Below are positions 1 to 36,158 of a DNA stretch of 64,000 nt, piece after piece. Every line of letters begins with the position of its first letter. Positions within the stretch are counted from its first letter, which is position 1. The notes under the pieces were generated by a model that was not told where the DNA came from, ran no database searches, and saw only the letters and a list, made by a program, of their open reading frames with translations. The stretch is from Botryllus schlosseri (taxonomy: Eukaryota): positions 23,128,001-23,192,000 of the forward strand of contig CM119372.1 in assembly GCA_051294905.1 (NCBI GenBank), written 5' to 3'. A program made the position numbers and the translations under genes.

Positions 1-639
1 CCGTCGCCGGTATATCGAGATACGTAGCTGAGCTTACATTGGACTTACAACAAAGGATAGACCTCATCAAGGATATGACTACACGCAAATGACAAATGAT
101 TCGCCGATAGCCATGATCGCGGCGATGTAATTAATTGGAGCCGCGATCAACACCATCGCGTGAATGCGTGATGAAGATCCAGTATCCAGCAGTGTTTGGG
201 ATCAAGTCACTACCTTCGAGTCACGAGTCATTACACATTTTGACTTGAGTCAATCGATTTTCGAAGGTGAATCGAGTCAAGTCAAGTCACTCGATTTTTG
301 GAAGTGCCTCGAGTCAAGTCAAGTTGCCTTTTTGAAGTATGAGGCATGGTTACGTCATTACATTTTGCTAGCTGTCCGAAATACAGATTGAGTGGTCATT
401 CTGATACTGAACCAATAAACGAATATATAGTTATATATACACGCAAGAAGGCGCTGTATCGCTCACACACACGCAGAACTGTTGAACTACGTAAGTAATT
501 GCATAGTCTTAGTTTATAGTTACCACCAGTCAAAATAGAGCATAGAGAAACTAATTGATGAGATGTAATACATTACCTATTCACACATATTGATATGATA
601 CAATTCGAGTCTGCGCCAATGGTTGAGGAGTATATTAAC

Positions 640-1854
640 TAGGAATGGTGTGAACCTCTGAAACGTTCAGGTTCGTGTGAACGCGAACCTTTTCCAAAGG
701 TTCTGTGTGAACGCGAACGTGAACCTCATGACGTCACGTGACGTCATATTGCTAATTCCAACCCTACATTTCAGTGAAGTGATAGCCTATATCAATGCTG
801 AAGTTGGCGTTTCAAACGTTGCCAAATGTCTGAGTATGAGTATTGCTACGTTGATATAGAGCAGAGTATAAAACGGGTTAAAAAGTTATACAGCTGTAGC
901 CAACACCCCAATCGCACGGATTGGTTTTTATGATACAGTAAACATATGAAGTCAAGATTGACCCCGTGCGCCTGCTAGATTTTTTTAACATCAGACAACG
1001 ATATCAATTTCATTGATAGCTTGAGTAAGCATCATTCGCGTACTACCTGTAGTGTATTTCTCTCTTGATGTTGTGTGATTGCGGGTCAAGCTCACAGCAG
1101 AGAATCACTAAATATTCACAAACGGAAAGCTGGATATTTCGAGCAAACTTTTGTAACAAAGCAAGTAAAACTTTTGAGATTGTCAAGGTGCATGCCCGTT
1201 TAGTCTTGAGTTTTTATGGTGCCATCGCCATGCATAGAGTGGCCGCAGTTAGAATGCAAATAATTTCAACCAAAGATGTTATAATGAAGTGAAAATTGTA
1301 ATATATGAAAAAGGTTCACGGTGCAGAACCTACCAGAGATGAGCGGATTGGAAATTTTCATGTCCTAATCCAATCCAAATCCGAACCTTCAAATCCAAAT
1401 CCTAATCCTAATCCATAACTTTTTCATATTCAAGTCCATGTCCAATCCTAATCCGATTCCAACTGGAAATTAAAAGAAAATACTAATTTATGCAATGGAG
1501 GGATTCGAAAAGTTTCTTTCACAACCAACGATTCACTTGATTCAAGATAACTTAGTAACCATAAGTACAATAATAACTGATCTGAATAAAGTTTGTCGCC
1601 ATTCGCCACACGACATTTCAATCTCCCAGAAAATAGGTAAATCCAATCCAAATCCTAATCCGTTCAGAAAAAAATATCTAATCCAAATCCAATCCAAATC
1701 CGACAAAATTTCACAAATCCTGTTTTTTCAAAACCTAATCCTAATCCATGCTCATCTCTGGAACCTACCAAGGTTCTTTGTGAACGTGAACCTCTAAATT
1801 TCTGAGGTTCACACACAGAACGTGAACGTGAACCTCATGTTCACACCATCCCTA
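640..1854 (+). mobile_element. hAT-type MITE family A (TIR TAGGGATGGTGTGAAC), carrying a nested MITE
   Basis: Starts TAGGAATGGTGTGAAC and ends GTTCACACCATCCCTA, with subterminal GTGAAC repeats. Same family as 6723-7703, 33598-38220 and 57258-58206. The flanks of this copy do not form a TSD. Confidence 0.85.
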
Positions 1855-2870
1855 CTAAAGTTATGATATAATAATATCGTTGGGTTATATTTTTCAACTG
1901 AACAAGTCACACACAATGCGATGTCATGAACAGATAGGAGGATGTCGAACGACACGCATCAGTAACGATCCTTTGGATAGTGTAGTGGTTACGATAAGCG
2001 CCCAGCACGCAGGCGAACCGCGTTCGATTCCCCTTCGGAGGTTTATCTGGGCTCCTATTCCCCTGCCGTTGCCGTTCTTACGGCGACAAAAAAGCCCAGA
2101 AAAAGACCCGACGAAAGAAAGCACTCACAATGAATGGAAAAGAACTAGTAGAAAGGGCCGCGGCTTCAAAGAGATCAACATCGAAAAAGAACTGTAACAT
2201 CGGGCACTCTAGGCCGAGGTGGATGTTAGAGTAAAGGATCGCTACTGATGCGTTCTACATCCTCCTATCTGTTCATGACATCGCATTGTGTGTGACTTGT
2301 TCAGTTGAAAAATATAACCCAACGATATTATTATATCGTAACTTTAGTAGGGATGGTGTGAACATGAGGTTCACGTTCACGTTCTGTGTGTGAACCTCAG
2401 AAATTTAGAGGTTCACGTTCACAAAGAACCTTGCTAGGTTCTGCACCGTGAACCTTTCTCATATATTACAATTTTCACTTCATTATAACATCTTTGGTTG
2501 AAATTATTTGCATTCTAACTGCGGCCACTCTATGCATGGCGATGGCACCATAAAAACTCAACACTAAACGAGCATGCACCTTGACAATCTCAAAAGTTTT
2601 ACTTGCTTTGTTACAAAAGTTTGCTCGAAATATCCAGCTTTCCGTTTGTGAATATTTAGTGATTCTCTGCTGTGAGCTTGACCCGCAATCACACAACATC
2701 AAGAGAGAAATACACTACAGGTAGTACGCGAATGATGCTTACTCAAGCTATCAATGAAATTGATATCGTTGTCTGATGTTAAAAAAATCTAGCAGGCGCA
2801 CGGGGTCAATCTTGACTTCATATGTTTACTGTATCATAAAAACCAATCCGTGCGATTGGGGTGTTGGCTA
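897..2870. repeat. Large inverted duplication (arms ~897-1974 and ~2233-2870, ~258-bp spacer)
   Basis: Identical 75-aa ORFs at 1065-1292(+) and 2475-2702(-). The reverse-complement match includes non-MITE flank (1855-1974 vs 2233-2347). Confidence 0.9.
1334..1760. mobile_element. hAT-type MITE family B nested in MITE A
   Basis: TIR CAGAGATGAGC...GCTCATCTCTG. Perfect 8-bp TSD GAACCTAC at 1326-1333 and 1761-1768. The empty site is visible in the inverted copy near 2430. Confidence 0.93.
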
Positions 2871-3590
2871 TATCAAAAAGTTGGGAAATTGCGTACTTTT
2901 TGAGGATCAAAACGCATGATTTTGCGTCAAATACCACTATTCGTCCAATTCGATTTTCGTTCAGATTCAATCGACAATTAGATTACCCAAAATGTATCGG
3001 CGTGCCCTCTGCTTCGGATATGTTATATATGCGGATAAGTATTACATCATGATATTAATGACAATATCAGAACGTTGAGAAATTGCGTACTTTTTGAGGA
3101 TCAAAATGCACGATTTTGCGTCAAATACGACTTGTCGTCCAATTCGATTTTCGGTCTATTTCAATCAACGATTAGGACACCCTAAATGTAACGGCGTGCT
3201 ATATGCTTCGGATATATTATATATTCGGATAAGTATTACATTATGATATTAACGGTAATATCAAAAAGTTGAGAAATTGCGTACTTTTTTAAGATCAAAA
3301 TGCATGATTTTGCGTCAAATACGAATTTTCTTCCAATTCGATTTTCGGTCAGTTTCAATCGACAATTAGAACACCTAAAATATAACGGCGTGCCCTCTGC
3401 TCCGGATATGTTATATATTTGGATAAGTAGTAAATCATGATATTATTGACAATAGCAAAAAGTTGAGAAATTGCGTACTTTTTTAAGATCAAAATGCACG
3501 ATTTTGCGTCAAATACCACTTTTCGTCCAATTCGATTTTCGGTCAGTTTCGATCGACAATTAGGACGCTCGAAATGAAACGCAAAGCTTC
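2871..3590 (+). repeat. Left terminal array, ~3.7 copies of a 194-bp unit
   Basis: TATCAAAAAGTT-like unit starts at 2871, 3065, 3259 and 3453. Confidence 0.93.
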
Positions 3591-4057
3591 GAGATATTAG
3601 GCATTTTTGGCGTTGGTGATAGGTTGATCTTCAATATGGTTTGTCTTTGTTTACTTGGGGTGTTCATGGTGTTTGTCAACTACTATGGTCATTTACACAA
3701 GGCCATTTGTTCATTTTAATCCGTAGCTGCCGACTTGTAGCACGGCCCGACGAGGACCGATTACACTGATGAGACAGCCTTGATAAACATCCAACACTAA
3801 GGTAGGAATTCTTGAGTCAACCTCGGTAGCTAACGACTATAATGGCTGTCAATTGAATTCACGATCAATAATTGGTATTTTGCGGCGTAGACACGAAGAT
3901 TATTAAGGGCCCCCGCGCCCCAATTACGTTAGTTGATGAACCAGCTCGTCATGTCATTTGAACTTGTGAACTATATGAAGAAGTGTTGTCACTTGGCAAA
4001 ACCAATACGGTGCAGTTTTAAGAATTGTATGTTGCAAGCGTTGTTCTATCAAGGGTC

Positions 4058-6292
4058 ATGGGTCGGGCTTCTACCCGTACCAAGCATTCAAGTACCCATC
4101 AGTCAAGTACCCACCAGCCAAGTACCAAGCAGTCAACTACCAAGCAGTCAATTACCAAGCAGTCAACTACCAAGCAGTCAACTACCAAGCAGTCAACTAC
4201 CAAGCAGTCAAGTACCCATCAGCCAAGTACCAAGCAGTCAACTACCAAGCAGTCAACTACCAAGCAGTCAACTACCAAGCAGTCAACTACCAAGCAGTCA
4301 ACTACCAAGCAGCTAAGTACCAAAAAGAAATATCTAGTGAGGACTATAGCTAATTTTCTGCATCGTAATGGAGTAGAATCACTAAGAACTGATAAACTCC
4401 AAAATGATTTTCTGGATAGCTGCAGTTATTGTAAAGGGAAAAGCACGACGCAGCGGAAAACACTTCTGCGTAGTTTCTGTAAACTTCAAGATGTGGAGAT
4501 AAAGAATGCTCTCAAAGGAATGTCTCGTTTCGAAACAGATGATGTGGCAACCAGTGATGACGTCGATGTCCGCTGTATTGTTGAAAAACACAACTCCAAA
4601 CAAGTTAATGAGTTGACAAATTTTGCTGGTCAGAGGTACTGTGTGTGTCGCAAAGAGTGGCGCGGGGAGGAGCTAGTTCAATGTGACACGGGTGAGTCGT
4701 GGTTTCATGATATCTGTATTTTCAAAGGCACTGCTCTGCGTAAATTTGTAAAGGGAAAGTGGGAAAAAGTACCATTACTGTGCCAACACGCCACTGTAGC
4801 CGTACATACCAAATCAGGATCAGGAATATTCCACCGTGTTGATGGAAATATACAATCAAAGATTCTCCAAGATGCCGGTACCTGTACCTCGTCGGTGGAG
4901 CTATTGACAAAAGGGACTCAAACCGATAGCATTCATGATGTACAAGAGATTCCATCGTGTAATGATGGCATTGCGCAGATCCACAAATCATTCTCTGATG
5001 AACTGTCGGATAACGAAGGGGAAACCGGACTTGGCTCATTAATGACCAGCAGTAAACTCGACCTTATTACATCTAAAACAATTGAAATCGAAGGTCACTT
5101 TAATATTGAGGGAAGTAAATGGAAATACATCGTCGGTGTCGATAATAACAGATTCGATAAGGACGAGTACAGGAATGTTATTCTGGACCCTATAAAATCT
5201 TTGTACGACGAATGCGTTCCGGCCTTTCTCAATCATTATTTGCGACATGTCGTCAACGAAAGAGGGAGTGACTCTTATGAAGTCGGTAATGCAAATCTGT
5301 ATTGCTCGCACAAAACATGTTACGTTACGTATCGTGTAACCTTTATGCAGCGTCAAAATTGTCCAGATGTTGAAGGGAGAATTATTATCGACGGAACTCG
5401 TTGTCACACAGGAGAATGCGTACGATCACGTCCAGTTCGCGGAAGCGAGCGGAAAATGATCAGAAGTAAACTGGACCACCGAAAGCCGGCATCGCTCCAC
5501 AACGAGTTGTACGATACTCTGACCGCTGAGCAGAGGATCCTCGGCTCCCATACAGACGTGCCAAGTTCCAACGTACTTCGAAAACTCAAGTGCGAACAGA
5601 CTTTAATTGATGTCAAACGCGAATGGTACGTCAACTTGGAGAAAATGAAGGATGAAGAGGCGGATTCCACAAGATTTATTAAATCCATTCAAACATCTCC
5701 CCCGCAAATCATTATATTTACAATTTTCGGGATCAAAGCGTTTAATACCTTATGTAAGATAGACATGATTTATTGCGACGCCAGTGGGAGCCTGAAAAGA
5801 GGCGAAGACTTCCAAATTTATACGTTGTTAGTGCGGAATCCTATCAAAGGAGAAGTTTCTCTTCCTATCGCTTCCTGCATTACAAAAAGTCACGACTCTA
5901 TATCTATTTCACAGTTCCTGAATTTTTTTCTATCTGAACGATTTCGCCTGACCGGAGCTCAATCAGCTCCGCTAAGGATTATTATCGATGGATCGCCTGC
6001 ACTGTGGAATGCAATTTTAAGATCGTTTTGCAACGAAACAAGACTGCAATATTACGTCCGCTGCTATCGCGTAGTATCTGGAATGCCAAATGCGAATGAC
6101 CTTAAACTGCCATTTATTCAGAATTGCTTGGCACATGCCATGAAAGCTGCAAAAGTCATGATCGTCAAACATTATAAAAAGCGCCTCAAAACACATGCCA
6201 TGTGTTGGATTTCCAGACTGTTTCGGGCGAAAACCATTGAAGAATTGGACTCGATTGTAAAAAGTTTCATCATCGTTACAAAGTGCAAGTAA
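4058..6292 (+). CDS. Exon 1 of transposase: low-complexity repeat, PHD finger, NOF/MULE transposase core
   Basis: PHD-like YCVCRK..LVQCD..SWFHDICI; GCM1/WRKY-like CSHKTC...RCH; catalytic YCDASGS and IIDGSPAL; CxxH motif NCLAH. First in-frame ATG at 4058. Confidence 0.85.
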   Translation: MGRASTRTKHSSTHQSSTHQPSTKQSTTKQSITKQSTTKQSTTKQSTTKQSSTHQPSTKQSTTKQSTTKQSTTKQSTTKQSTTKQLSTKKKYLVRTIANFLHRNGVESLRTDKLQNDFLDSCSYCKGKSTTQRKTLLRSFCKLQDVEIKNALKGMSRFETDDVATSDDVDVRCIVEKHNSKQVNELTNFAGQRYCVCRKEWRGEELVQCDTGESWFHDICIFKGTALRKFVKGKWEKVPLLCQHATVAVHTKSGSGIFHRVDGNIQSKILQDAGTCTSSVELLTKGTQTDSIHDVQEIPSCNDGIAQIHKSFSDELSDNEGETGLGSLMTSSKLDLITSKTIEIEGHFNIEGSKWKYIVGVDNNRFDKDEYRNVILDPIKSLYDECVPAFLNHYLRHVVNERGSDSYEVGNANLYCSHKTCYVTYRVTFMQRQNCPDVEGRIIIDGTRCHTGECVRSRPVRGSERKMIRSKLDHRKPASLHNELYDTLTAEQRILGSHTDVPSSNVLRKLKCEQTLIDVKREWYVNLEKMKDEEADSTRFIKSIQTSPPQIIIFTIFGIKAFNTLCKIDMIYCDASGSLKRGEDFQIYTLLVRNPIKGEVSLPIASCITKSHDSISISQFLNFFLSERFRLTGAQSAPLRIIIDGSPALWNAILRSFCNETRLQYYVRCYRVVSGMPNANDLKLPFIQNCLAHAMKAAKVMIVKHYKKRLKTHAMCWISRLFRAKTIEELDSIVKSFIIVTKCK
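4078..4322 (+). repeat. 15-bp coding minisatellite (CAACTACCAAGCAGT)n encoding (TKQST)n
   Basis: About 16 tandem 15-mers in frame with the transposase ORF. Confidence 0.9.
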
Positions 6293-6722
6293 GATTTCAA
6301 TATCAATCAAGTTCAGAGTTTATGACTGATCCACTCTATTTATCAACTGCGTATAACTGCGTATATAAATGGTACTAATAGTCATAACTTTCCTTGTATA
6401 GACGGACTATATAAATATATATAGTAATGATGCGAGCCTCAAGTTCACATCCGTGTTCGGCATATGCGAACGTTGCTAATTTAAAAGTTAGTCCTTGCGA
6501 AAAGAAACAAAATTCAGAAATGTGAAGATTTCTAGAAACTATAGTATTGTCTACTCTTGCATCGTGTTGGATCCCTCACAGGATCAATCACAAACCTAAA
6601 TCCTTCTACCCGTACCCACCTTAGTGATGTGATACCGCGTGGCATCGTAAGTTCACTCTGATCACACAGAACCGTTTCTGCAAAAGTTTAAGTTCACACA
6701 TTCATGCACTCATGGTATACAT

Positions 6723-7703
6723 TAGGGATGGTGTGAACGTGAGGTTCACGTTCGCGTTCTGTGTGTGAACCTCGGAAATTTTGAGGTTCACGTTCACAAA
6801 CGAACCTTGGTAGGTTCTGCACTGTGAACCTTTTCCATATATTACAACTTTCACTTCACTATAACATCTTAGGTTGAAATTTATTGTATTGAAACTGCGG
6901 GCCACTCTATCTATGGCGATGTCAGAATAAAAAATCAACACTAAACGAGCATGCACCTTGACAATCTGAAAAGAAATTACTTGCTTTTTTGTTACAAACG
7001 TTTGCTCGAAATATCCGGCTTTTCGTTTGTGAATATTTAGTGACTCTCTGCTGTGAGCTTGGCCCGCAATCACACAACACAAGAGCGAAATACATGCAGT
7101 CAGCGAATGATGCTTATTCAACCAATCAATGAAATTGATATCTTTGTCTGATGTAAAAAATCTAGCAGGTGTACGGGGTTAATCTTGACTTCATATGTTT
7201 ATCGTATCATAAAAACCAAATCCACGCGATTGGGGTGTTGGCTACAGCTGTGTAACTTGTTAATGGGGTAATGTCGGTAGCAAGTATAGAAACCCGTTTT
7301 ACCCTCTGCTCAATATCAACATAGCAATACCCAGTCGCCAAATACATTGTCCGGTCTGGCCTAAACCGTTAAGGCGTAAGCTTATATTCCCTTGTAAGTC
7401 CTCGTCGAAAATGTTGGCAAAGCCACGGAAGGTATAGATTTTATGGGATTATTATATCATTTGATTGCACCAGTTGATACATTTGGCGACGTTTAAAACG
7501 TTAATATGTACGGCAGCATTGTGGCATGTCGTCGCTAGGTATCGTGCACATTATAGGCTACCACTTCACTGAAATGTAGGGTTGGACTTAGCAATATGAC
7601 GTCACGTGACGTCACGAGGTTCACGTTCGCGTTCACACAGAACCTTTCAAAAAGGTTCGCGTTCACACGAACCCGAACCTTTCAGAGGTTCACACCATCC
7701 CTA
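6723..7703 (-). mobile_element. MITE family A inside the transposase intron
   Basis: TIRs TAGGGATGGTGTGAAC / GTTCACACCATCCCTA. Perfect 8-bp TSD GTATACAT at 6715-6722 and 7704-7711. Confidence 0.95.
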
Positions 7704-7910
7704 GTATACATATGCGCAGATCGTGTGTATGTGTATCATGAGTCGGTGTATATGCCGCAAAAACATCAAGGACAAAAAAATAAACAATATGCGTCCTTTC
7801 CACGAACACAAGCCTTCACATATGTGTGCCCCCATATTCCTACATATATGGTGCGTAAATGATGTGTCATTCAGTGATGGTATCTTCGAATATATATTCA
7901 TATTTTACAG

Positions 7911-8767
7911 GTATACGTCAACTTTTGTTGATGATCATTTCGACCATATAATGAAAGAAGATGGAAGCAATGTAGACGGAATAGATTCGTTCCCGAGAGA
8001 CTTCGCACACTCAGACTCTAGCGAGACTATTTTGATTGAATCTAAAAAGCAAGATGAGTATCATGAGCTCCGATCACCATTTCGTCACAGGTATGGGACT
8101 ATGACGGAAGCATTCCGAGAATCGCAGTACTACATAGCTCATTCATCAGAACTTGCCGGATCGTCACGCCAGTTGAATGTATACAACGATGGCGACAACG
8201 ACTTCTGAATTAATGATTGGAGATCTAAGCCGGCATTGTAACAATTTCTCAACGGCTAAGCAAACCGAAATGTACAACGGATTTTCGAACAATTACCGAC
8301 GGATAGCCAAGTCCAGGTACCGCAATATCACAATTGACAATAGAACTCAGGGATGCGTCGAGCAAAGCTTTGATTGGCTAAAAAATGTTATACTGGGGAA
8401 AGAAAGAGCAAACCGTTTGGATAGTTTCGTTGTCAAATATAAACGTTCAATTTTGATTCAAGAAAAAAAATTCTTCGACGCACTTTATCGAAATGGATAT
8501 TTGGCAACATTATTATACAAATTAAGTGATCAGTCCGTATCAAAGACTTCGAAAACAGTACAGTCAAAGTTTAAACGAAAAAAGTCACGCGGTAAAGGAT
8601 GCTATTCGAGCGATCGGATTAACATCATCAAGACCACAATCAAATACGCCAATCAGCGTACAACAAAAGCTGTTGCCTTGAATTGCCCCGAAACGATAGA
8701 TCTGACGGATCAAGCTCCATCATCCCCTCCGATCTCTTCGGAACGCAATTTGGTACCATTTACATAG
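7911..8767 (+). CDS. Exon 2, first part: transposase C-terminal catalytic Glu region (frameshifted)
   Basis: RTQGCVEQSFDWLKNVIL matches the T/NxxVExxF..K third catalytic residue motif of MULE transposases. It lies in ORF 8177-8767, a different frame from 7912-8208. Confidence 0.75.
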
Positions 8768-8770
8768 GAT

Positions 8771-11101
8771 TTGCCACAAATAACAAAAGTGCCGTACCCT
8801 TGGTCTACTTTGGACTTCCAAAAATGTGATGGTTTGGTAACGGCAATCTGGAAAAAGATGTATAACTTTGATCGAATCGAGCAAATGTTTGACACTGCTG
8901 TGCAATATTTACGTGATTCATTTCTTCTGTGGCTCGATTTGAAATCTCTCATACCGCTTTCAATGTGTGAATCGATCGTAAGTTTTCACGAAATTGAGAA
9001 ATCCCACCCTCTTGGCTGGCTGACGTCGGATGTTGTATACTGCTACATTAAAAGGTCGGCGTCCTTGGCCACGCAGCAAAATGAGTCGAAGGCTTTTGAA
9101 TGCATTGACCCAGACAACACCAGAGAGATACTTCAGGGAAAAGGATTCAGATCTCCAAATCGTAGCTGCAGCTTATCTACAGTGAATGCTGCTTCAGGTG
9201 TTAAGTCCCGTGCTTTCATGACGCGACTTTATCCATTAGTTTGGGAAAGGCATTTCTATCTAATTGTATTTGATTCACATGACAATTCTATCACATTATA
9301 CGACTCCATTGACCACATGAACGAAGGTCTTAACAGGGCTATTAATGAACATTTAATGCCCGAGCTGCAAAAATTAACCAAGTGCGAGGTCGTTTCTTTT
9401 TCACGACAATCTCCGATTAAGCAGCCAGATCTTGAGAGCTGCGGCGTTTGCGTTTGCGTTGTCGCGGATCGGGTTTGTTTCGGACTCGATCAACCTTCTG
9501 AAGGTACCGATGTAATCAAATTTTTGATCATGTACCGAAAATGGATATGTTTTCAAGTCGTTAGTCAGTCACATTCTGTTCACCGCGATATTAGACACAT
9601 CGCTGTCAATACGTTTTGCGCTAACACCTGCACCAAAGGTATGCCTAATATTGGAAATTCTTGTTGGTTCAATGCTACCACCCAATGCTTGGCATTATGT
9701 CTGAAAGGCCATATCGGTACAGCAATGAACTATGCCGAGTACGCATCCATAACCTCTGATTTCATGCAATTAATTATGCAATTGACTTTAGATAGCCGCA
9801 GACATTGCATCGTATCTGACATTGAAAAATTGGTATCAGATATATGTTCAAAGTTTGGATGGGATTGTGGCACGCGGCAAGATGACGGAGAGTTCATCAC
9901 CAGAATTCTCGATACAGACTTGAGCGATGCGATGGAGCAGATGGGGGTTACTTCCAAATTTCGATTGATTCGCAAAGTCAATTGCAAGCGTTGCAATTTT
10001 CCCTCGAAGTTCATAGAACATCGGCTATCCGTTGTTTTACATACATTTGAAGAGGACAGTGATATTTCTGACCTGATCACAAATTTTCCTCGTCAATGTG
10101 TTAATACTAACAGCAAATGCCTACAATGCCACGCTGATGTAGACGAACATGTCGTATTCGGAACCCTTCCCAACATGCTGGTGATAAATGTCAGTCGCGG
10201 AACTCCAGAGGGTAAAAACATCATCTCAGTCCAGATACCCGATTCAATGGATCTCGAAGTAGATGGATTGAAATCCCATTATATACTAAAAGGGAAAGTA
10301 ATCCATCATGGTACGTCGTGTGCATCGGGCCACTATCTCGCATATACCGGAAATCATGATGGATTCTGCACAGTATTCGACGACGACGCATTACGTGTGG
10401 TAAATACTGATCGGCTAATAATTGACACGCAACAAAATGCTACAATCCTGATGTACGTAAAAACTGGTGAGACGATCAAGGACGCAAGATCGAAGCAAAT
10501 TCCTCGTCGCCGCATACCGCCTAATTTTGGCACATGCACAATTGTGGAGAAAAAGAAAGATGTGCCGTATGTTCCACGGTATGGAAACAATCTCAACAAT
10601 ATGACATGGACAGGAACGTCTGTCATGCAGTTGAATTCTATGTTAAACAATTTAAAAAAACTTACCACCTCGTCAATGAGAAATGGAAATGCGAAAGCAG
10701 AATGGTATCGACATTCTCTGTTCGTGAAAGGACAACAAAAATCCCTGAAAAAATTCAATTCGACTCTGAAATATGCCGAGAGCGAAACTTCGGAAACGCA
10801 TCTGGAAAATTTGTTGGAATTCATTAAATCGAAATTTCGCCTTAGAACTAGAACCGTTAAATATTTCAAGCACATGAGCGGGGATTCGTCCCTATACAGC
10901 TCAAAAGACAGTTTAGTCGTTTATCCGAATCCTGAGGTGTTTGGGAACGCTTTGTTTCATAGTTTTAAAGACAAAAAACGAAATTTCCGAGAATATGTAA
11001 ACGAAGTGCTGCATTTTGAAGGAATGATATTTTTCGCAATGGCACTAAAAAATCAGGACTACAATTCAATATCAAAAGACTTTGGGTTTTCATTGGATTA
11101 A
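8771..11101 (+). CDS. Tandem Ulp1/SENP-like C48 protease and USP-like C19 deubiquitinase domains
   Basis: Ulp1: WLTSDVV, HFYLIVFD, YDSI, QPDLESCG (H-D-Q-C intact). USP: Cys box GMPNIGNSCWFNAT, RQDDGEF, CKRC/CLQC, His box VIHHG-SGHYLAY, FDDD. Confidence 0.9.
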   Translation: MPQITKVPYPWSTLDFQKCDGLVTAIWKKMYNFDRIEQMFDTAVQYLRDSFLLWLDLKSLIPLSMCESIVSFHEIEKSHPLGWLTSDVVYCYIKRSASLATQQNESKAFECIDPDNTREILQGKGFRSPNRSCSLSTVNAASGVKSRAFMTRLYPLVWERHFYLIVFDSHDNSITLYDSIDHMNEGLNRAINEHLMPELQKLTKCEVVSFSRQSPIKQPDLESCGVCVCVVADRVCFGLDQPSEGTDVIKFLIMYRKWICFQVVSQSHSVHRDIRHIAVNTFCANTCTKGMPNIGNSCWFNATTQCLALCLKGHIGTAMNYAEYASITSDFMQLIMQLTLDSRRHCIVSDIEKLVSDICSKFGWDCGTRQDDGEFITRILDTDLSDAMEQMGVTSKFRLIRKVNCKRCNFPSKFIEHRLSVVLHTFEEDSDISDLITNFPRQCVNTNSKCLQCHADVDEHVVFGTLPNMLVINVSRGTPEGKNIISVQIPDSMDLEVDGLKSHYILKGKVIHHGTSCASGHYLAYTGNHDGFCTVFDDDALRVVNTDRLIIDTQQNATILMYVKTGETIKDARSKQIPRRRIPPNFGTCTIVEKKKDVPYVPRYGNNLNNMTWTGTSVMQLNSMLNNLKKLTTSSMRNGNAKAEWYRHSLFVKGQQKSLKKFNSTLKYAESETSETHLENLLEFIKSKFRLRTRTVKYFKHMSGDSSLYSSKDSLVVYPNPEVFGNALFHSFKDKKRNFREYVNEVLHFEGMIFFAMALKNQDYNSISKDFGFSLD

Positions 11102-11355
11102 TTGGAATGATATGCCGCATGAATTCGAATATTTCGTTTTTCCTCTAAATACGTCCATTTCTACAATCCTATATCTACATCGAGTATTCTTTACAAAATA
11201 CACGTTTCGAAATTACATTTTCAATTTGCATATTAATCCGTTTGAAACTCATTGATTCGAGGGGAGTTGCTGACAAAAATCAGGGACGAAGATGACAAAG
11301 CAGGACAGGACATAGCATTGTAAAACAGAAATTGTTATATCATGATGTTATAACA

Positions 11356-13095
11356 GATATTATCGTTAATACCATGATGTAATACTTATCCAAATGTATA
11401 ACATATCCGAAGCAGAGGGCACGCCGTTACATTTTTGGTGTCCTAATTGTCGATTGAAACTGACCGAGAATCGAATTGGACGAAAAGTCGTATTTAACGC
11501 AAAATCATGCGTTTTGATCCTCAAAAAGTACGCAATTTCTCAATTTTTCGATATTATCGTTAATATCATGATGTAATACCTATCCAGATATATGACATAT
11601 CCGAAGCAGAGGGCACGCCGCTATATTTTAGGTGTCCTAATTGTCGATTGAAAATGACCAAAAGTCGAATTGAACGAAAAGTCGTATTTGGCGCAAAATC
11701 GTGCATTTTGATCCTCAAAAAGTACGCAATTTCTCAACTTTTTGATATCATCATTAATATCATGATGTAATTCTTATCCAAATATATAACATATCCAAAG
11801 CAGAGGGCACGCCGTTATATTTTTGGTGTCCTAATTATCGATTGAGACTGAACGAAAATCGAATTTGACGAAAAGTCGTATTTGACACAAAATCATGCAT
11901 TTTGATCCTCAAAAAGTACACAATTTCTCAACTTTTTGATATTATCGTTAATACTATGATGTAATACTTATCCCAATAAATAACATATCCGAAACAGAGG
12001 GCACGCCGTTACATTTTAGGTGTCCTAATTGTCGATTGAAACTGACCGAAAATCGAATTGGACGAGAAGTCGTATTTGACGCAAAATCGTACATTTTGAT
12101 CCTCAAAAAGTACGCAATTTCTCAACTTTTTTATATTATCGTTAATGCCATGATGTAATACTTATCCAGATATATAACATATCCGAAGCAGAGGGCACGC
12201 CGTTATATTTTAGGTGTCCTAATTGTCGATTGAAAATGACCAAAAATCGAATTGAACGAAAAGTCGTATTTGGCGCAAAATCGTGCATTTTGATCCTCAA
12301 AAAGTACGCAATTTCTCAACTTTTTGATATTATCATTAATATCATGATGTAATACTTATCCAAATATATAACATATCCAAAGCAGAGGGCACGCCGTTGT
12401 ATTTTTGGTGTCCTAATTATCGATTGAGACTGACCGAAAATCGAATTTGACGAAAAGTCGTATTTGACACAAAATCATGCATTTTGATCCTCAAAAAGTA
12501 CGCAATTTCTCAACTTTTTGATATTATCGTTAATGCCATGATGTAATACTTATCCAGATATATAACATATCCGAAGCAGAGGGCACGCCGTTATATTTTA
12601 GGTGTCCTAATTGTCGATTGAAAATGACCGAAAATCGAATTTGACGAAAAGTCGTATTTGACGCAAAGTCATGCATTTTGATCCTCAAAAAGTACACAAT
12701 TTCTCAACTTTTTGATATTATCGATAATACTATGATGTAATACTTATCTAGATATATAACATATCCAAAGCAGAAAGCACGCCGTTATATTTTTGGTGTC
12801 CTAATTATCGATTGAGACTGACCGAAAATCGAATTTGACGAAAAGTCGTATTTGACGCAAAATCATGCATTTTGATCCTCAAAAAGTACACAATTTCTCA
12901 ACTTTTTGATATTATCGATAATACTATGATGTAATACTTATCTAGATATATAACATAATCAAAGCAGAGGGCACGCCGTTATATTTTAGGTGTCCTAATT
13001 GTCGATTGAAACTGACCGAAAATCGAATTGGACGAAAAGTCGTATTTGACGAAAAACCATGCGTTTTGATCTTTTAAAAGTAAGCTATTTCATTT
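11356..13095 (-). repeat. Right terminal array, ~9 copies of the 194-bp unit, inverted relative to the left array
   Basis: GCAGAGGGCACGCC recurs every ~194-195 bp and is the reverse complement of GGCGTGCCCTCTGC in the left array. Confidence 0.93.
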
Positions 13096-13559
13096 TTTTG
13101 TTTTTATTGTTTATTGAATAACTTATAAATTGCGGCATTACAGTCGACCTATACCAAACACGAACGTGACGTTGATCGCAATAATCGTAATTATTTATAT
13201 TCTGATGTGCTCAAGACACATAGTTTGCAATGCGATGTAGTTAACAGGCAAGAAGATGTTGCATTTACCTATTATGGTATTTTAATCAAACAACGACTAA
13301 AGCCAATTGGCCGATGTAACAGTGTGGGATAGGCTGTCTTCGTTAAACGTTATTATTTGTTTTTGTTTTTCTGCTCGATATCACATATAATCTTTTGTGG
13401 AGTGTTTCTTCGGGCGTCTTGACGCCGTAAGAAATAGTCAAACTTGGTGGAAGGAACACAAATTAACCTCTGATGCTTCGGCTACAGGCGAGAATCGAAA
13501 TAGGTCCGCCTGCGTAGATTACGTAACGGCTGAAAATTTAGATGCCATAAGGGTCCGTG

Positions 13560-14530
13560 GACATATTAGCATGCGACACAATAGCATGCGACACTTGAGC
13601 ATGCGACACTTGAGCATGGCGACTTTTGGTCATGGCGACTCGTGGGCATGTAGACATATCAGCACAGGGACATATTAACATGAGGACATATTAGCATGGG
13701 GACACATAAGTATAGGGACACACGAGCATGGATACACGTGAGCATCGGGACACATCAACATGGTGACAATTTAATAAGTGCCACTTGAGCATGGTGACAC
13801 ATGAGCATGCGATACATGAGCCTTGACGACACATGAGCATGGGTACACAAGAGCATGGGCACACATGCGCATATGGACACATGGGCATGGGGGCATAAGA
13901 GCAAAGGTGCACATGAGCATGGGGTCATGTACGCATGCGACACTTCAGCATGCGACACGTCTACATGCAGACACTTGAGCATGCGACACGTGGATATGCA
14001 GACACTTGAGCCTGCGACACTTGAGCATGCGACCCTTGAGCATGGGACAGTTGAGCATGCGACACTTGAGCATGCGACAGTTGAGCATGCGACACTTGGG
14101 CATGCGACATTTGGGCATGGGACATTTGAGCATGCGACACAATAGCAAGCGACTCTTGAGCATTCGACACTTGAGCATGCGACATTTGGGCATGGGACAT
14201 TTGAGCATGCGACACAATAGCAAGCGACTCTTGAGCATGCGACACTTGAGCATGCGAAACTTGGCGACACTTGGGCATGCGACACTTGGGCATGCAACAC
14301 TTGGGCATGCGACACTTGGGCATGCGACACTTGGGCATGCGACACTTGGGCATGCGACACTTGGGCATGTGGTCATGCTACACTTGGGCATGCGACACTT
14401 GGGCATGCGACACTGGAGCATGCGACACTTGGGCATGTGGTCTTGCTACACTTGGGCATGCGACACTTGAGCATGCGACAGTTGGGCATGCGACATTTGG
14501 GCATGCGACAGTTGGGCATGTGACCATATA
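13560..14530 (+). repeat. Left subterminal 15-bp array (CTTGGGCATGCGACA)n
   Basis: Direct tandem repeats visible; they produce spurious HATLG/MRHLG ORFs. Confidence 0.92.
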
Positions 14531-16000
14531 TTAGCGCGTAACCAATTTGATTGCCGCGCGAGGAAAGTGGCAAATTGATTGAGTGGGTGGGTGCATGGTC
14601 TGTGACTATATGGATTTGTCTGAAAAGCTCCAAAGATCGGGGTAAAGCGATAAAGGTTGTCATTGCTCCACATATATTAGAATCGTTTACACCAGATGAA
14701 CTAAAAGGATATATCCTTTCGTGAGACGAAAGCAATTCCAAATTCGCAATTCGACACGGGACTTATTATTTTATTTTGTGGGTCTCAATTTATACGTGAG
14801 GTTCAAGCTGCGAGCGCTGGTCTTTTCGGCGCCTGGACAGTGGTCATATCAATGTTGAACATTTTGGTCAACATGTGGCGGTTATTTTATTTCAAGGTTT
14901 TATCGCCGTCAGTACCTACAAGGAGTCGCGTGTTGCCCGAAACGTGGGTCTCGTGGTGTGAAAATGCCAAACGCCGAAATGCCAGTCGATCTCGAAATAC
15001 GGCGTTTGAGCAAGCGTTTTCCGAGTCAAGCCGTGGGCAGACTCAAGGCCTTACTCATTCCCTTTTTTACGGTTTGGCCCTGAATATATTGCGGAAATTG
15101 CGCTGTGAGCATGTTTGGTGCCTGCATTCAGAATTTCAACTGTAATATATAGCACCGTTATAAGATGGAAATCATGTTCTAGCGCCGTATGGCTTCATCG
15201 TTGGCTGCGTAGGCTATTCCCAAATCGGCGGACATTTTTCACCAGAAAGGTATCCGATGGATTCGCAAAATCGGTTAATTCCTCTCAACGCTCTGTTTGA
15301 TCACTTAATATAAAACGCAGCGATTATGTACAAACGAATGGACGATGACTGTTACTGAAAAACCACACACAAGCTGTTGTCTACAATAGCGATCCTCCAA
15401 TCCTAACAAGAACCGAATCTTCGGCGATGCGGACAAATGCAATACACGATGGTAGATGACCTGGCGCTTTATGAATGTACGCAATGTTAGATCATCGCAA
15501 TACAGTTGATAAAACCGTCCGTCCCTTTGTATGGCGGAAATATCAACAACGCGGTACCAATACCCATCATCAGTAATCCAATAAATAGCTTGTGCTTATG
15601 CCTTAAAACTTCAGGATGAAGTCTGGTGTCTCATTATTGAAAATATTTGCTTTGGCTACTACAGTATGTCAAATAGTCATGTTATTGAGCGGTGTTATTT
15701 CGTCTATACATCCAGCGTATAATTCTAATATAATGTGTTGACGTAATTGAAGGCAATATTAGGCAACCAACATCATACCCAGACCCGCGGATTGCAAGAT
15801 CGCGAGCAATTAACAAAACCGCAGACGTCTGCAAGCAATCATCAAGCTGTCTAATCTATCGAGTAAAGACTCGAAACCGAACAACGCTCGAAATCCTACC
15901 CGAATACCAAATGATCTCTCGTATCTTGGAGTTGTATAGTTGTAGTAAAATTTGCTTTGATTAGCGTTCGGTTGGCGCTATTCATAGTTGGAGCAGCAAC

Positions 16001-17458
16001 ATGTCGGAATACCGGGTTTTTACTTCTACAAAAGGAAAACCAAAACTTGCGTACCATGGATATTCTTACCGCCGAAGCAATCAAAATATCAATTCTACCA
16101 ACTGGCGATGTGATTTTAGAGGCTGTAAAGGCAGCATAGCGACTTCAAGAGACTACATAACTTGTCGTCAGGCGGTAAACGTATTACAACAGCATTGTCA
16201 CGTTCCAGATCCTGCTAGAATAGAGGCACTATTGCTGAAAGATGAAATAAAGGTGGCTGCATCTGTTGCTAATGATGCTCCAAGGCGCATACTTGGTCAA
16301 ATGCTAGCGGGAGTTTCCGAGGAAGCCGCCTCCAAGACACCACAGAGGAAGAGTCTCTCAAGGATGATTCAGAGACACAGGCATCGAAAAGGTGGATTTG
16401 AACCGGCGCCCTCGTCGAATGATTTTGTTATCCCGGAGAGATATAAAACGGTGTCACATGGCTCGGATGAAGTGGCATTTCTTCTGCATGACGACTTCGA
16501 CTTGACTGCAGAGGAGCAATGCAGTCCTCATAGAGCTATCGTATTTGCATCACGGTACATGCTTAACACACTGCAACAATCCTCCACATGGATGCTTGAT
16601 GGTACATTCAAAGTTGCGCCTTCCCAGTTCTATCAGTTCTTCACGATTCATGCTGTACTTGATGACTATGTTGTTCCTTGTGTTTACGCTCTTCTTCCCA
16701 ACAAGAGGTCAGAGACATATAGAAGATTGTTCAAAATATTGAAAGCCAATCAGAACGGTCTTCAACCGCAGCACGCCGTGATCGATTTTGAAATAGCTTC
16801 CAAGAATGCACTGGAAGGCGAGTTCCCTGGGATCAAAGTTAGTGATTGCTACTTTCATTTATGCCAGTCCATCTGGCGGAGTGTTCAGAGGTTCGGCATC
16901 AGTGAACAGTATACCTGCAACAACGACGTCCGCAAATACGTTAAAATGCTTTGTGCTCTAGCATTTTTACCTCTTGACGAAGTGGTCGCTGGATACGACG
17001 AACTGAATTTAAAGATACAAGAAGCAGAACTACCAGAAGGGTTGAGTCATCTTTATCAATACTTTGAAGATTGCTATATTGGCCGACAAAACGTCGGAAC
17101 TGCTGATAGAAGTAAATCCAAATTTGAGATATCAATGTGGAATGTAAAGGATAGAACTGAATCCGGCATTCCAAGAACCAACAACAGGTTGGAGGGATGG
17201 CACAGCGGCATCCAAAGACATTTCGACTGTGACCATCCCTCGATTTGGAGATTTTTGCAAGCTTTGAAGCAGGAGGAGATGATGCAATACCTTCTGCTTC
17301 AACAACGGATCGCTGGCATGCCTGCACCACCTACCGAAAAGCGATATCGTGAGCTTAATCTCAGACTTGAACGACTTATTCAGTCATACAAAAATCAAAG
17401 TATGACGCGAATGGAATTTGTTCAGGGAGTAGCCTTCAACATCAGCCTATGTGTTTGA
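16001..17458 (+). CDS. FLYWCH-MULE transposase, 485 aa, uninterrupted
   Basis: FLYWCH-like KGKPKLAYHGYSY..WRC...C...H.H; DDE core WMLDGTFK, VIDFE, CYFH, RTNNRLEGWH. Confidence 0.95.
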   Translation: MSEYRVFTSTKGKPKLAYHGYSYRRSNQNINSTNWRCDFRGCKGSIATSRDYITCRQAVNVLQQHCHVPDPARIEALLLKDEIKVAASVANDAPRRILGQMLAGVSEEAASKTPQRKSLSRMIQRHRHRKGGFEPAPSSNDFVIPERYKTVSHGSDEVAFLLHDDFDLTAEEQCSPHRAIVFASRYMLNTLQQSSTWMLDGTFKVAPSQFYQFFTIHAVLDDYVVPCVYALLPNKRSETYRRLFKILKANQNGLQPQHAVIDFEIASKNALEGEFPGIKVSDCYFHLCQSIWRSVQRFGISEQYTCNNDVRKYVKMLCALAFLPLDEVVAGYDELNLKIQEAELPEGLSHLYQYFEDCYIGRQNVGTADRSKSKFEISMWNVKDRTESGIPRTNNRLEGWHSGIQRHFDCDHPSIWRFLQALKQEEMMQYLLLQQRIAGMPAPPTEKRYRELNLRLERLIQSYKNQSMTRMEFVQGVAFNISLCV

Positions 17459-19109
17459 ATTGAAATATGAACCGCTGGATAAGATATTGTGATTAGAGAT
17501 TAGCAGATGTTTCGTTGTCAGTGATGATATTTTGGTCTTTTCAGCAAAAATTGAGAGAAACGGCTTTACTGTGATGCATTTTCATTTGCACAAATTGATA
17601 GAAACGGCTTTACTGTGATGCATTTTCATTTGCACATTTCTTTTGTGTTAGACTGTGTCAAATATATGTTGGTATGACATAGTACTATCGTAGGTATTGA
17701 AGCAGAAATTGTCAGGAAAGGTCACAGTACACTTGTAGAGGGTCATACTTCCCATGTAATGGCTTAGGGCTACTGGAGAACAGTGTGACGAAGTAGGTCT
17801 GTATTTCTATGACATGCGGTGAGGTTGAGGTAGACTCTTTTAGTTCGATTCAAAACATTTAAACCTTGATCGAATTAAACCATGTTATACTAGCTCTACT
17901 TAGCCAGGGTTAGGCGCGAAAGTCCTCTAAAACATTTCCACACAACCTGCTGAACGGTATAGCCGCGAGTAGCCTGGGCTATGTATGGGAAGTTTCGTTC
18001 AGCCGAAACTTGATCACAGGTCACGCGGCGGTTTACCCATAGTAGTAGTTAGTTGAGATATACCAAATAATGTAACAGTTATTGAGGATTGGAGACTTTA
18101 AGCCATCAGGCCTACTTACTAAAGCTTTCGCAGATGTGAAATGCGTTTAGAACAGTGGTTCCCAGCAACCTATTTGGATGTCGGAGCAGTGTTGCAAACT
18201 TCGGAGTACCTATATGGAGCCGCATGAAAACACTCGCGAAGCCTATACTTATAAAGAAAATTTAATGGTATAGCTATAGCCTACCTCTGGATCTCACCGT
18301 CCAGCTAATTCAAAGGCATGTACGATGCACATATAGACTTCTATAGATGCTATATCGGTTGTTTTAGCATTGCTAGATAAAGACTGGCGAGTGCTATACA
18401 TTGAAATATACTAAAAATGCATATCATCACTACAGTATACTATATATAACGTTATGTAATACCTCTTCATACATTCCAGCAGTTAATGCACAAGTTTGAT
18501 TGGGATTGTACGCTGAGTAATATTGGTAATATTGCAATTTATACTTGACTATCAGCCGATACTTTGATGCCAGTAAAATTGTGTCGAAAGTTACTCTTCA
18601 CAGAGACAATCTGTAAAGGTCTATGACCATCAGAACTCAGAATATATCATTTTCTGACGGGTATAAATCCATGGTTTCGACGCTATTCTGCAAAAATTCT
18701 CTTTCTCCGTTTTCAGAAGAGGCCTTTGGCAAACATCAGCAACTGTTTATAATATTTTAGTGGCATATTCAGGGGTCTATCAGAGCCGCAAGAAGGTTAG
18801 CCGGGTTAGAAATCACTGGTTTAGAATCTACTTTCAGAACAAACGCTATATCCAGTATCGTGGCGTCCCCGCATCGACAACAAACTTCATTCTGCATGGG
18901 TATGCACATGCACACTGCACAGTCTTGTGATGTGCAGGATTGAAATATACAGACTGCAATTTCCACTGATGTCATGTTTCACTAACCGCAGACGAAGCTA
19001 GCCGTGAAATCGAGTTATTTTATTTATTAATAAAAGCATGTTGTGGTGCTTATAACAGCGTGGTTTTTTGCACCACGTGACAACAAATTCCATCACTAAC
19101 ACAAGCTAA

Positions 19110-19820
19110 CTTGCTCAAGTGTCACATGCTCAAGTGACGCATGCTAAAATGTGGCACATGCTAAAATGCGGCACGCTCAAGTGTCGCATATGCTCAAGTG
19201 TCGCATGCTCAATTGTCGCATGCCCAAGTGTCGCATGCCCAAGTGTCGCATGCACAAGTGTCGCATGCCCAAGTGTCGCATGCCCAAGTGTCGCATGCCC
19301 AAGTGTCGCATGCCCAAGTGTCGCATGCCCAAGTGTCGCATGCCCAAGTGTCGCATGCCCAAGTGTCGCATGCCCAAGTGTCGCATGCCCAAGTGTCGCA
19401 TGCCCAAGTGTCGCATGCTCAAGTGTCTGATGCCCAAGTGTCGCATGCGCAAGTATCCGCATGCTCATTTGTCACCATGCTAATATGTCACCATGCTAAT
19501 ATGTCACCATGCGCAAGTGTTAACATGCTGAAGTGTCCTAATCGTTATGTGCCCCCATGCTCACGTGTTACCATGCCCATATGTAACCATGTTCATTAGT
19601 CCCCATGCGAATGTGTAACCATGCTCAAGTGTCGCACGCTAAACTGTCCCCATGCCCATGTGTCCCCTTGCTCATATTTCACCATGCTCATATGTCCCCA
19701 TGCGCATGTGTCCCCATGCTCATGTGTCCCTATGCTCATGTGTTACCATGCTTATGTGTCCCCATGCTGTAGTGTCGCATGCTCAACTGTCGTTTTGCAT
19801 TGTGTCGCATGCTCATATGT
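19110..19820 (-). repeat. Right subterminal 15-bp array (TGTCGCATGCCCAAG)n
   Basis: Reverse complement of the left array unit. Confidence 0.92.
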
Positions 19821-20469
19821 CGGGCAACCGCCATAAGTACTACCTGGTGGTTGTAAAATGAAGCACTTCTTCAAGTTTCGATTATATATTGTATTGATCA
19901 TACCGTTTGCGCCATTTATTGATAAAACTCGTGTGTTTCAGTTCGTTTGCACCCAAATCTGTCGCGAAATTGTTTTTCCGGTTATAACATTTGATTTTAG
20001 CACAAGTGAATCATTTCGACAATAATGACTCCGCGATTTCCGAAATATGACGTAAGCATTTTCTGGCAGAATCACAGTGGTCTCACCTCCGTAGGTATAG
20101 GTTAGTTATCTAAAATAATAATAGTGAGTGTTGATGATGATAAATAAAAGCTGGTTAACTTTATTTATTTAAAATGGATACAGTGGATTTGTGAAACATG
20201 GAGTTCTCTTATTGATGAATGCATTACTATATGTAGCTTACAGTTGGCTTGTAATCTATGACTTACTTATATTATATGGCGGTAGACGGTCAATATTGTA
20301 CGTTGTCAAGTTGTTTATTTTGAAGCACGAGCAAGATCAAGATTGACATACCGAACAAAAACGGGTATCCATCATGAGTATCGCCGACTTAACTGAATTT
20401 TATACATTTTCATTTCACAGTTACAAAGCATTTGCAACGAATGTTTTGGCACCTCAATGTTAATGACTA

Positions 20470-21040: not shown

Positions 21041-21851
21041 GTAATGACTCTATCCTTCTTGATCAGATTTGATAACTTCTTAATAAACAAATACCGGTAT
21101 ATAGATAGTAATGAACTAATGAGACATCACTGGGTATCAAATTCTGTCGTCATTTACACACCAATGCGACCAGGCCTATATGAGTTTGGTTAGGATTTCT
21201 GATCACTGAACCGCTTACACTACAGTGGATAGAAAACTGCATGTGCATCACATTAAATGTTATGGAATTCAATAAGGCTGTTAAACGGCTCATTTGTCAG
21301 ATTTTGTGAGTTATGTCAATGCGGAGTAATTCGAAATGACGACAATAGCTCATTACAATAAACCAATTGGTGATGAAAAGATGAAAAATTTTTGTCTATG
21401 CTATCAGAGCACAAGCTGTTGAAGGCATCCCCTCAAAAAAGCTTTTATAACAAAGCATAGCCTTTTTTTCCATACTACTGAATATGGTTGCGGGCTAGCT
21501 GCCAGACCCCAGATTAACGACGAGATAGTGTAGTCCTTCTTTCGGCACTCTGAAATTGTGTGGAGACGAAAAATATAATAGTGCTTTCAACTCGAAAATC
21601 TCATTGTCGAAGCAGTTGGACTGTGTACATGGGAATGCAATGCCTACTTTGCCAATCACACTTGCAGGTTGCAACTATAGTCTTGATGATATTGATATGC
21701 AGAGTCATGGAATGCATTCATAATAATATTATAGGCTATCATAAATTACTGCGCTAACATGAATCACCCCACTTGATTCTATCAATCAGATATATTTAAA
21801 TCCATACTTATTGCTGGATATTATAATCTGCGATGTAGCTCCCTCATAGGC

Positions 21852-35230: not shown

Positions 35231-36158
35231 TCAATGTACTATTTTTAGGTGATACACGAACTCCTTTTGTTGACAGAGTTTTGGTTGGTGTATTTTGATA
35301 AAAGTTGATTCCAAGGCACACAAATGGAATTGTGAACGGCCTCGACCTACGATTCGAAATCGGTCGTCTCGATAATTATTCGCACAAATCGGATTATCCA
35401 ACAGATGTTTGCCGATGGCAGAATTAATTGCCTTTGATCGATCAGCATCAATCTTAAGTGGATGAGTTAAGGGTGAGCTTTTCACATCGCGTGACGCACG
35501 TGTTCTGATAAATCTGGGGACATGTTGGTTTATGCGGTCCTGCAGACGTCTTGAAGTTCTTCCCACGTAGCCACAATCACAGTGGCACCTATATTCGTAC
35601 ACTACATTACTTTGTTGAAGTGCAGGAAGCACGTCTTTGCGTGTTGAAGGGAGCAGTTGTGTTGTTGTCAAAATCACATTGGTTTTGACTGTATCGTAAC
35701 ATTTACCGACAGCAGAAATCAATTGTTTTTCAAAGCGGGTGGAAATGGGCCCAATCCAAGGTAGATGGATATAAACATCTTTTATTGTTCGTGCGGTGGG
35801 CTCTGTTCGTTTTTCTGCGTTGAATTGCGTTAATTTCCTCTCCATGCCGCGGCTGATGACGTGTTCAGGGTAACCGTTATCAAGTAAGATTTTTCGGATG
35901 TATAGTCAAGTTCTAAACTCAGTTTGTTACCCGAACATATCATCAACGCTCTATGCACGAGTGTGCCTATGAGGTTAATTTTTCTGCGCCGAGGACTAAA
36001 TGAATTCCAGCGAAGGTATTGGCCTGTGAATGTCGGTTTCCTGAAAACAGACGTTTCAAATTTGTTGGTATTGCGCTTTTCAACTAATACGTCCAGAAAT
36101 GATAATGAGTTATTGCGTTCTTTTTCTATTGTGAATTGCAAGGCCGGGTGAAGCGAGT
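35231..36158 (-). pseudogene. Penelope RT thumb + GIY-YIG endonuclease, frameshifted
   Basis: ORF 35231-35845 plus an upstream frame; 2-bp insertion near 35900 relative to the plus arm. Confidence 0.88.

Follow-up and report, generated by a model that had tools for sequence, protein, structure and literature searches.

Can a single transposase chain carry the means to remove both SUMO and ubiquitin, and what would a transposon gain from this? The question was raised by a window of 64,000 nucleotides from Botryllus schlosseri (GCA_051294905.1, CM119372.1:23,128,001-23,192,000, forward strand; coordinates below are positions within this window). From the letters alone, a preliminary description had proposed a foldback transposon in which one spliced reading frame, lying between inverted 194-bp arrays, links a PHD-like finger, a DDE transposase core, a SUMO-type protease (Ulp1) and a ubiquitin-specific protease (USP). 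Judged by sequence comparison, fusions of this PHD-DDE-Ulp1-USP type are real and old, are maintained by selection and occur widely. The copy in the window is a pseudogene: a 41-bp deletion shifts the frame of exon 2 at approximately 8195, position 8765 begins a TAG where a sister copy has TTG, the PHD finger has lost a cysteine (Cys to Gly at 4691), the left end is missing and the right end is split. The arrays do flank the coding region in inverted orientation (Table 1), with 87-89% complementarity between left and right, and the motifs were found where they had been placed (PHD 4637-4717, YCDASG 5771, IIDGS 5981, CLAH 6125, VEQSF 8357), as were the His, Asp, Gln and Cys of the Ulp1 domain. 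The order of the domains also held, but the single spliced frame did not, since the frameshift and the stop persist after removal of the intron. Splicing was deduced because taking out the GT-AG intron yields a gap-free alignment to sister families that have no intron. In two sister copies that lack the miniature inverted-repeat transposable element (MITE)-like insertion, the intron measured 633 bp. Among the RNA reads mapped to the window frame, none was spliced across it.

Uninterrupted PHD-DDE-Ulp1-USP frames were present in three sister families, which were found by the same genome searches and have array units differing from those of family A, the family of the window copy. They encode 1884 (family B), 1678 (family C) and 1503 amino acids (family D), each with a UCH match above the Pfam cut-off. 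In the genome these frames lie at C2:19336872-19342523, C14:4972285-4977318 and C13:12185040-12189548, respectively. All four families keep the DDE residues, the CxxH motif and the USP Cys, His and Asp/Asn, aligned in the same order, with catalytic residues retained at a between-family identity of 21-29%. The Ulp1 His, Gln and Cys were likewise kept in 4/4 families, family D having Asn for Asp. For family C, the 20 kb of sequence covered held an array on just one of the two sides.

The two protease domains were assigned by profile and fold. The USP boxes had been described as intact, and this was correct for Cys, His and Asp (Table 1), with a Pfam UCH score of 71 bits against a cut-off of 23.9. 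The Gln box of the window copy holds Arg at 9875, where 9/10 aligned rows have Gln. The family features of USPs (Cys box, Gln-x-Asp box, His box with Asp/Asn and USP fold) were otherwise found. No Pfam C48 match was obtained for Ulp1 in the window or in families A-D. A ten-row Ulp1-USP profile matched USP36 (E 1e-20) and SENP1 (E 2e-10), and a second comparison of Ulp1 gave SENP1/2 at E 6e-8. Structure prediction, suggested in the preliminary description, recovered separate SENP/Ulp1 and USP folds in a model of window positions 8900-10468 (mean predicted local distance difference test score 66.5). The USP half gave a Foldseek E of 2e-14 and aligned 258 residues with USP12 (Z 22.5, root-mean-square deviation 3.0). 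The Ulp1 half aligned approximately 180 residues with SENP3 (Z 15.7) and Ulp1 (Z 15.6) at a root-mean-square deviation of approximately 3.0, within a SENP/Ulp1 range of Z 14-15.7. SENP1/2 were favored over the NEDD8 protease by sequence (E 6e-8 versus 5e-4), and the folds were close (Z 15.7 versus 14.0). The acidic residue of the Gln box, which presumably binds ubiquitin Arg72, was kept in 30/31 element-type USP rows. From the models and matches, Ulp1 is predicted to strip SUMO and the USP to strip ubiquitin. Very long proteins with low-complexity linkers could also be cut into parts by a C48 domain, in the manner of its clan members from adenoviruses and Polintons, leaving the USP as the only de-conjugating enzyme. 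The divergence of the domain beyond the reach of Pfam C48 in families A-D and its His-Phe in place of the SENP His-Trp would fit such self-processing. We consider it very unlikely, however, since the best sequence and fold matches were SENP1/2/3/5 and Ulp1, and no conserved cleavage motif was evident by eye in the linkers of the family alignment.

Purifying selection acts on the USP, as judged from the ratio of nonsynonymous to synonymous substitution rates (dN/dS). This comparison of the protease domains, another suggestion of the preliminary description, gave 0.28-0.61 for the USP in 7/7 diverged pairs with bootstrap intervals all below 1, and 0.44 and 0.18 for Ulp1 in diverged subfamily pairs, for which the DDE core gave 0.24 and 0.20; the pairs share lineages and are not independent. 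Comparisons within family A gave 0.55-0.63, and their intervals included 1, which is what copies that died recently should show. One very close pair in a wider scan had a USP value of 0.87, based on few changes. The catalytic Cys, His and Asp/Asn were present in 31/31 element-type USPs, and Trp directly followed the catalytic Cys in 29/31 of these rows versus 0/19 host rows. In a quick tree of 51 domains (among them 31 element-type and 19 host rows; 5/31 element-labelled records were without DDE and 3/19 host rows were badly cut), a branch with support 95 set the 19 host rows apart, and no element row fell among them. The element USPs were not resolved as one clade, and the window USP sat on a long unplaced branch. 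No donor was found among the 19 host USPs sampled. Since the element USPs lie outside these, a recent capture is not indicated, and the recent neutral capture from a host gene that the preliminary description had considered was not borne out. That the USP is a captured host domain carried as a neutral passenger is scarcely plausible: its loss in some sister families and its dN/dS above that of the DDE core would be compatible with this, but the values below 1 in every pair, the retained catalytic residues and the separation from the host USPs argue against it, and the selection data largely refute it. The genome also encodes at least nine host USP genes in long uninterrupted frames of 526-1304 amino acids.

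Related fusions were found in other animals. A word-indexed homologue search with the intact family-C protein gave no match, but a HMMER profile search of a library of 1.84 billion representatives did, and the best 150 matches were taken. A DDE region together with a USP of at least 25 bits occurred in 28 of these 150 (34 at a looser cut), and among those DDE proteins of at least 1300 amino acids, 16/18 carried a USP; the search profile contained the USP, so that USP-bearing proteins were favored. Pfam UCH and C48 were both above cut-off beside the DDE region in 14/27 relatives scanned. Most relatives had the order DDE-USP-Ulp1, and one protein of 2074 amino acids had the order of the window. 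Named carriers were from Palaemon carinicauda (shrimp), Holothuria leucospilota (sea cucumber) and Pinctada imbricata (pearl oyster), and these are probably mobile as well. A thrips protein (KAK3916962.1, Frankliniella fusca) consists of an H2C2-rve Ginger-type integrase followed by an Ulp1-USP tandem. Two DDE-USP-Ulp1 relatives, one from Pinctada imbricata and the other standing for 441 member sequences, contained N-terminal BAG domains above the Pfam cut-off. Element proteins bear public labels such as 'sentrin-specific protease' or 'ubiquitinyl hydrolase', as if they were host proteins, which is a mis-annotation. A count of USP gains and losses on the DDE tree (12 changes) was discarded, since many of the rows without a USP were incomplete.

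At the N-terminus, the Pfam PHD score was 21-27.5 bits around a cut-off of 24, covering only the first half of the profile; the finger is a variant one. Matches in the PDB reached E 1e-9, and the closest structures were those of EBS, SPP1, DIDO and PHF2/8, which we take to be readers of H3K4me3. The finger is likely a histone reader. As in the MULE/Mutator superfamily, the DDE core has a CxxH following its second Asp, and a long helical insertion precedes the Glu; the model of a sister protein showed an RNase H-like strand-helix order at low confidence. The DDE-to-USP region was modelled poorly over residues 240-554 and was excluded from the fold search. Pfam MULE (PF10551) matched neither the window pieces nor 12 sister open reading frames, and one relative gave E 0.0014, below the cut-off. 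A profile comparison with the canonical MULE nested in the element likewise gave no match to the window-type DDE.

Comparison with sister copies placed a conserved terminus approximately 0.5-0.85 kb outside the arrays. The element was therefore larger than described: it had been ended at 13095, whereas the right inverted repeat continues as far as 13551 and, beyond the 6.3-kb MULE that splits it, up to its terminus at 20081. This was the only match at the locus; the left terminus was absent from window positions 1-3000 and from the 10 kb upstream. The 26-base terminus occurred 44 times in the genome versus 0 for the control. Both termini were present in 16 elements, 13 from family A and 3 from family B. 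Exact target duplications of 8 bp were found at 13/16 of these and of 9 bp at 2/16, while one had a mismatch (1/16). Exact duplications at so many loci identify these as transposed elements.

Rehavkus is a Repbase group placed in or beside MULE. An affinity to Rehavkus and NOF had been proposed, and it holds on DDE motifs matched by eye, without a computed score. D-x-[ST]-G, H-[DT], a second D with A-L-x-N, AH, SPFY, N-x-Y and E-x-x-F-x-x-x-K agreed with six published Rehavkus rows, and a pearl-oyster relative has the exact motif DATGSVV. The motif order is shared with Rehavkus-1_TC, -3_TC, -1_HR and -1_DY and with Drosophila FB-NOF, judged by eye against the alignment published in PMC13359780. 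Long inverted ends with subterminal tandem repeats, a PHD finger, a single open reading frame and a size of 9-12 kb are also common to Rehavkus/FB-NOF, and Atlas leads, taken as leads only, name NOF-FB clusters at 0.84 and 0.79. Published descriptions of Rehavkus name 9-bp duplications together with subterminal repeats and a PHD finger (PMC6446971; bioRxiv 2024.12.02.626372; PMC10218199). Unlike the present elements, with mostly 8-bp duplications, five of six Rehavkus are listed with 9 bp (PMC6446971). A USP beside Ulp1 is not mentioned for Rehavkus in the portions seen of these three sources, and the family-A intron is a further difference. Because of the 8-bp duplication and the absent Pfam MULE match, we call the elements Rehavkus-related rather than Rehavkus.

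Proteases of this kind have precedents on other transposons. Ginger1 carries either Ulp1 or OTU but not both, in some cases with a PHD finger, and Ulp1 also occurs on MULEs (PMC2836005, in part). The Ulp1-carrying MULEs (KAONASHI/Vandal, hydra and lancelet MuDR) and Ginger1 thus resemble the present elements in placing a de-conjugating cysteine protease on a DDE transposon. They have one protease, whereas a SUMO-type and a ubiquitin-type protease here share one transposase chain. A C19 domain fused to a DNA transposase (transposase_11) is known from Trichomonas vaginalis XP_001314237.1 (PMC2836005), which differs in being a single protein with another transposase family and, in the part of the source seen, no mention of Ulp1 or PHD. 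Helitrons and Helentrons carry VTD, OTU, UCH and C48 cargo, some with two deubiquitinase classes, and their VTDs are active (PMC9741609, in part). UCH is enriched in HLE2 subgroups, and UCH and C48 are both Helitron cargo (PMC11417382). These are rolling-circle elements, in contrast, with UCH in a separate open reading frame and no DDE fusion. bioRxiv 2021.09.26.461848 contained no protease terms. Single de-conjugating domains on transposons are thus already known, and the pair of USP and Ulp1 on a Mutator-type transposase appears to be new within the literature covered. The search found no such pair on a Mutator or Rehavkus transposase, with Repbase, Dfam, most subscription journals and bioRxiv supplements outside its scope; Repbase Rehavkus entries of 9-18 kb could already hold or note a USP.

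What, then, might the pair do? Proteins stuck on DNA are cleared by a route in which SUMO is attached first and ubiquitin second (the SUMO-targeted ubiquitin route). Since the proteases are fused to the transposase, they would act where the transposase sits. We hypothesized that Ulp1 and USP form a tethered shield that prevents SUMO and ubiquitin from driving the removal of the transposase while it is bound to DNA, a reading to which we give an even chance. The transposase would load in many copies onto arrays with 150-240-bp units, while its PHD finger would read H3K4me3 and bias it to open chromatin. Crowded on DNA, it would be SUMOylated, then ubiquitylated, then extracted or degraded, and the fused Ulp1 and USP would reverse both steps in cis before transposition ends. 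The pair occurs in either order and also on an integrase unrelated to this transposase, as would be expected if both activities on a transposase are selected. The BAG domains of two relatives point to control of protein turnover and favor self-protection, and the same protective role has been proposed for transposon-borne VTD domains, which are active deubiquitinases (PMC9741609).

Other uses of the proteases were weighed. Placed on chromatin by the PHD and DNA-binding regions, the fusion could remove SUMO from silencing factors and ubiquitin from H2A at its own arrays, so that the element stays transcribed; VANC achieves this in a different way for Vandal MULEs. The VANC/KIU genes, which carry Ulp1, bring about hypomethylation of the elements that encode them (PMC13317346). 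Unlike the fusion, though, VANC is a gene of its own that works in trans, and little expression was seen here in the RNA reads. The copies bear on this as well. Among 18 family-A copies, chosen from the best USP and DDE matches, eight other than the window copy had kept the protease side only (two of them partly), including two derivatives with long open frames adjoining the left array, which would suit such anti-silencing. Eight others had kept the DDE side only, however, and one the DDE side and half of the USP; a preferential retention of proteases by derivatives was therefore rejected. On balance, we regard anti-silencing as unlikely. Nearly all copies had lost internal sequence but kept their ends intact, as usually results when gap repair is interrupted. 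This is compatible with proteases that edit SUMO and ubiquitin at the excision break or integration gap, favoring gap repair and limiting damage signalling. For the Ulp1 and OTU domains of Ginger transposases, such a function has been put forward (PMC2836005), and SprT-like matches, weak and below cut-off, were found in two relatives. Deletion derivatives are, however, frequent in protease-free elements too; steering of repair is clearly improbable.

Several observations weigh against self-protection, or against the importance of the USP to it. The present observations leave the transposase, chromatin factors and repair factors alike as candidate substrates. In the list of fold matches, proteases for NEDD8 and ubiquitin appear among the C48 folds, and the SUMO protease USPL1 appears among the USP folds. 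The USP evolves faster than the DDE core. In family A, only the window copy (1/18) had all domains, and it is broken. RNA reads on the window frame had a mean depth of at most 1.9 in four runs (3-13% of each read), and those on a diverged family-B copy covered the USP and C-terminal part only (82 reads, both directions, 1/3 raw-read runs). Copies lacking the USP, which the preliminary description had considered, do exist beside the intact families B, C and D that have it in frame: no USP was present in the copies examined of families E (1 copy) and G (3 copies), which have downstream pieces of another C48-like domain, possibly intron-split. A second foldback clade in the genome, with arrays of 154-237 bp, has the order DDE-Ulp1-PHD and no USP. 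Both family-F copies stop after Ulp1, and the named protein closest to the second clade is from the tunicate Styela clava (36% identical). Since the USP is missing in some families, it would be an aid to spread and not a requirement.

Beyond self-protection of the single element, there may be an undescribed and widespread Rehavkus-related animal lineage with its own two-step counter-defence, in which a Cys-Trp USP subfamily and a SUMO protease act on a chromatin-reading transposase, the pair having been reached separately by Ginger-type integrases. We find this somewhat doubtful. If true, SUMO-targeted ubiquitin clearance of DNA-bound transposase would be a general host restriction on DNA transposons that the elements have repeatedly cancelled. 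Ulp1, OTU and VTD proteases have long been seen on transposons, and their role in transposition has not been demonstrated; a single chain, intact copies and natural versions without the USP make a protease role testable. A distinct, old USP lineage living on transposons would be added, and a stabilizing module could serve engineered transposases.

Table 1. Features of the element and its insertions in the window
Feature	Position	Strand	Basis or remark
Left inverted-repeat array, 3.7 x 194 bp	2870..3581		Repeat analysis; outer part and left terminus gone
Transposase fusion, exon 1	4058..6288	+	First ATG 4058; frame open from 4022
15-bp tandem repeat coding a low-complexity Ser/Thr/Lys/Gln tract	4078..4323	+	Repeat and open reading frame analysis
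PHD-like finger	4637..4790	+	First zinc site and aromatic cage kept in family; last ligand pair not conserved
Conserved Cys/His motif preceding the catalytic core	5303..5419	+	Alignment; putative zinc-binding DNA-binding region
DDE core: D 5777, D 5987, CxxH 6125-6136	5771..6136	+	Alignment, motifs
Putative GT-AG intron, 1622 bp	6289..7910	+	Colinearity with intronless sister families
MITE-like insertion in intron, kin to repeats at 639-2870	6722..7704		Repeat comparison
Exon 2: rest of DDE (E 8360), Ulp1, USP, C-terminal domain	7911..11101	+	Broken frame
Ulp1/SENP-type (C48) protease domain	9014..9560	+	H 9251, D 9302, Q 9422, C 9440
USP (C19) domain, two CxxC pairs	9638..10456	+	C 9662, H 10331, D 10379
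Conserved C-terminal domain, type unassigned	10676..11098	+	Shared by families A, B and C but not D
Right inverted-repeat array, 8.9 x 194 bp	11356..13091		Repeat analysis
Right inverted repeat, outer non-repetitive part, inner piece	13092..13551		Comparison with sister copies
Nested unrelated FLYWCH-MULE, 15-bp arrays, 8-bp target duplication	13552..19829	+	Transposase open reading frame 15965-17458
Right inverted repeat, outer piece and true right terminus	19830..20081		Terminus match

The FLYWCH-MULE within the right inverted repeat has an intact frame of 497 amino acids. On the other side, MITE-like repeats at 624-2870 adjoin the truncated left array in a near-perfect inverted arrangement, with arms at 897-1335 and 2432-2870 that are 99% complementary. 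A repeat piece in the intron (7704-7778) attracted thousands of RNA reads that continued into A-rich tails, and it resembles the end of an abundant element of the short interspersed nuclear element type. Other long frames of the window lie at 21777-23675, 28393-28944, 35231-37201 and 43776-44843; by eye, we take these four to comprise a host-like gene rich in cysteine, pieces of retroelement type and a frame resembling a seven-transmembrane receptor.

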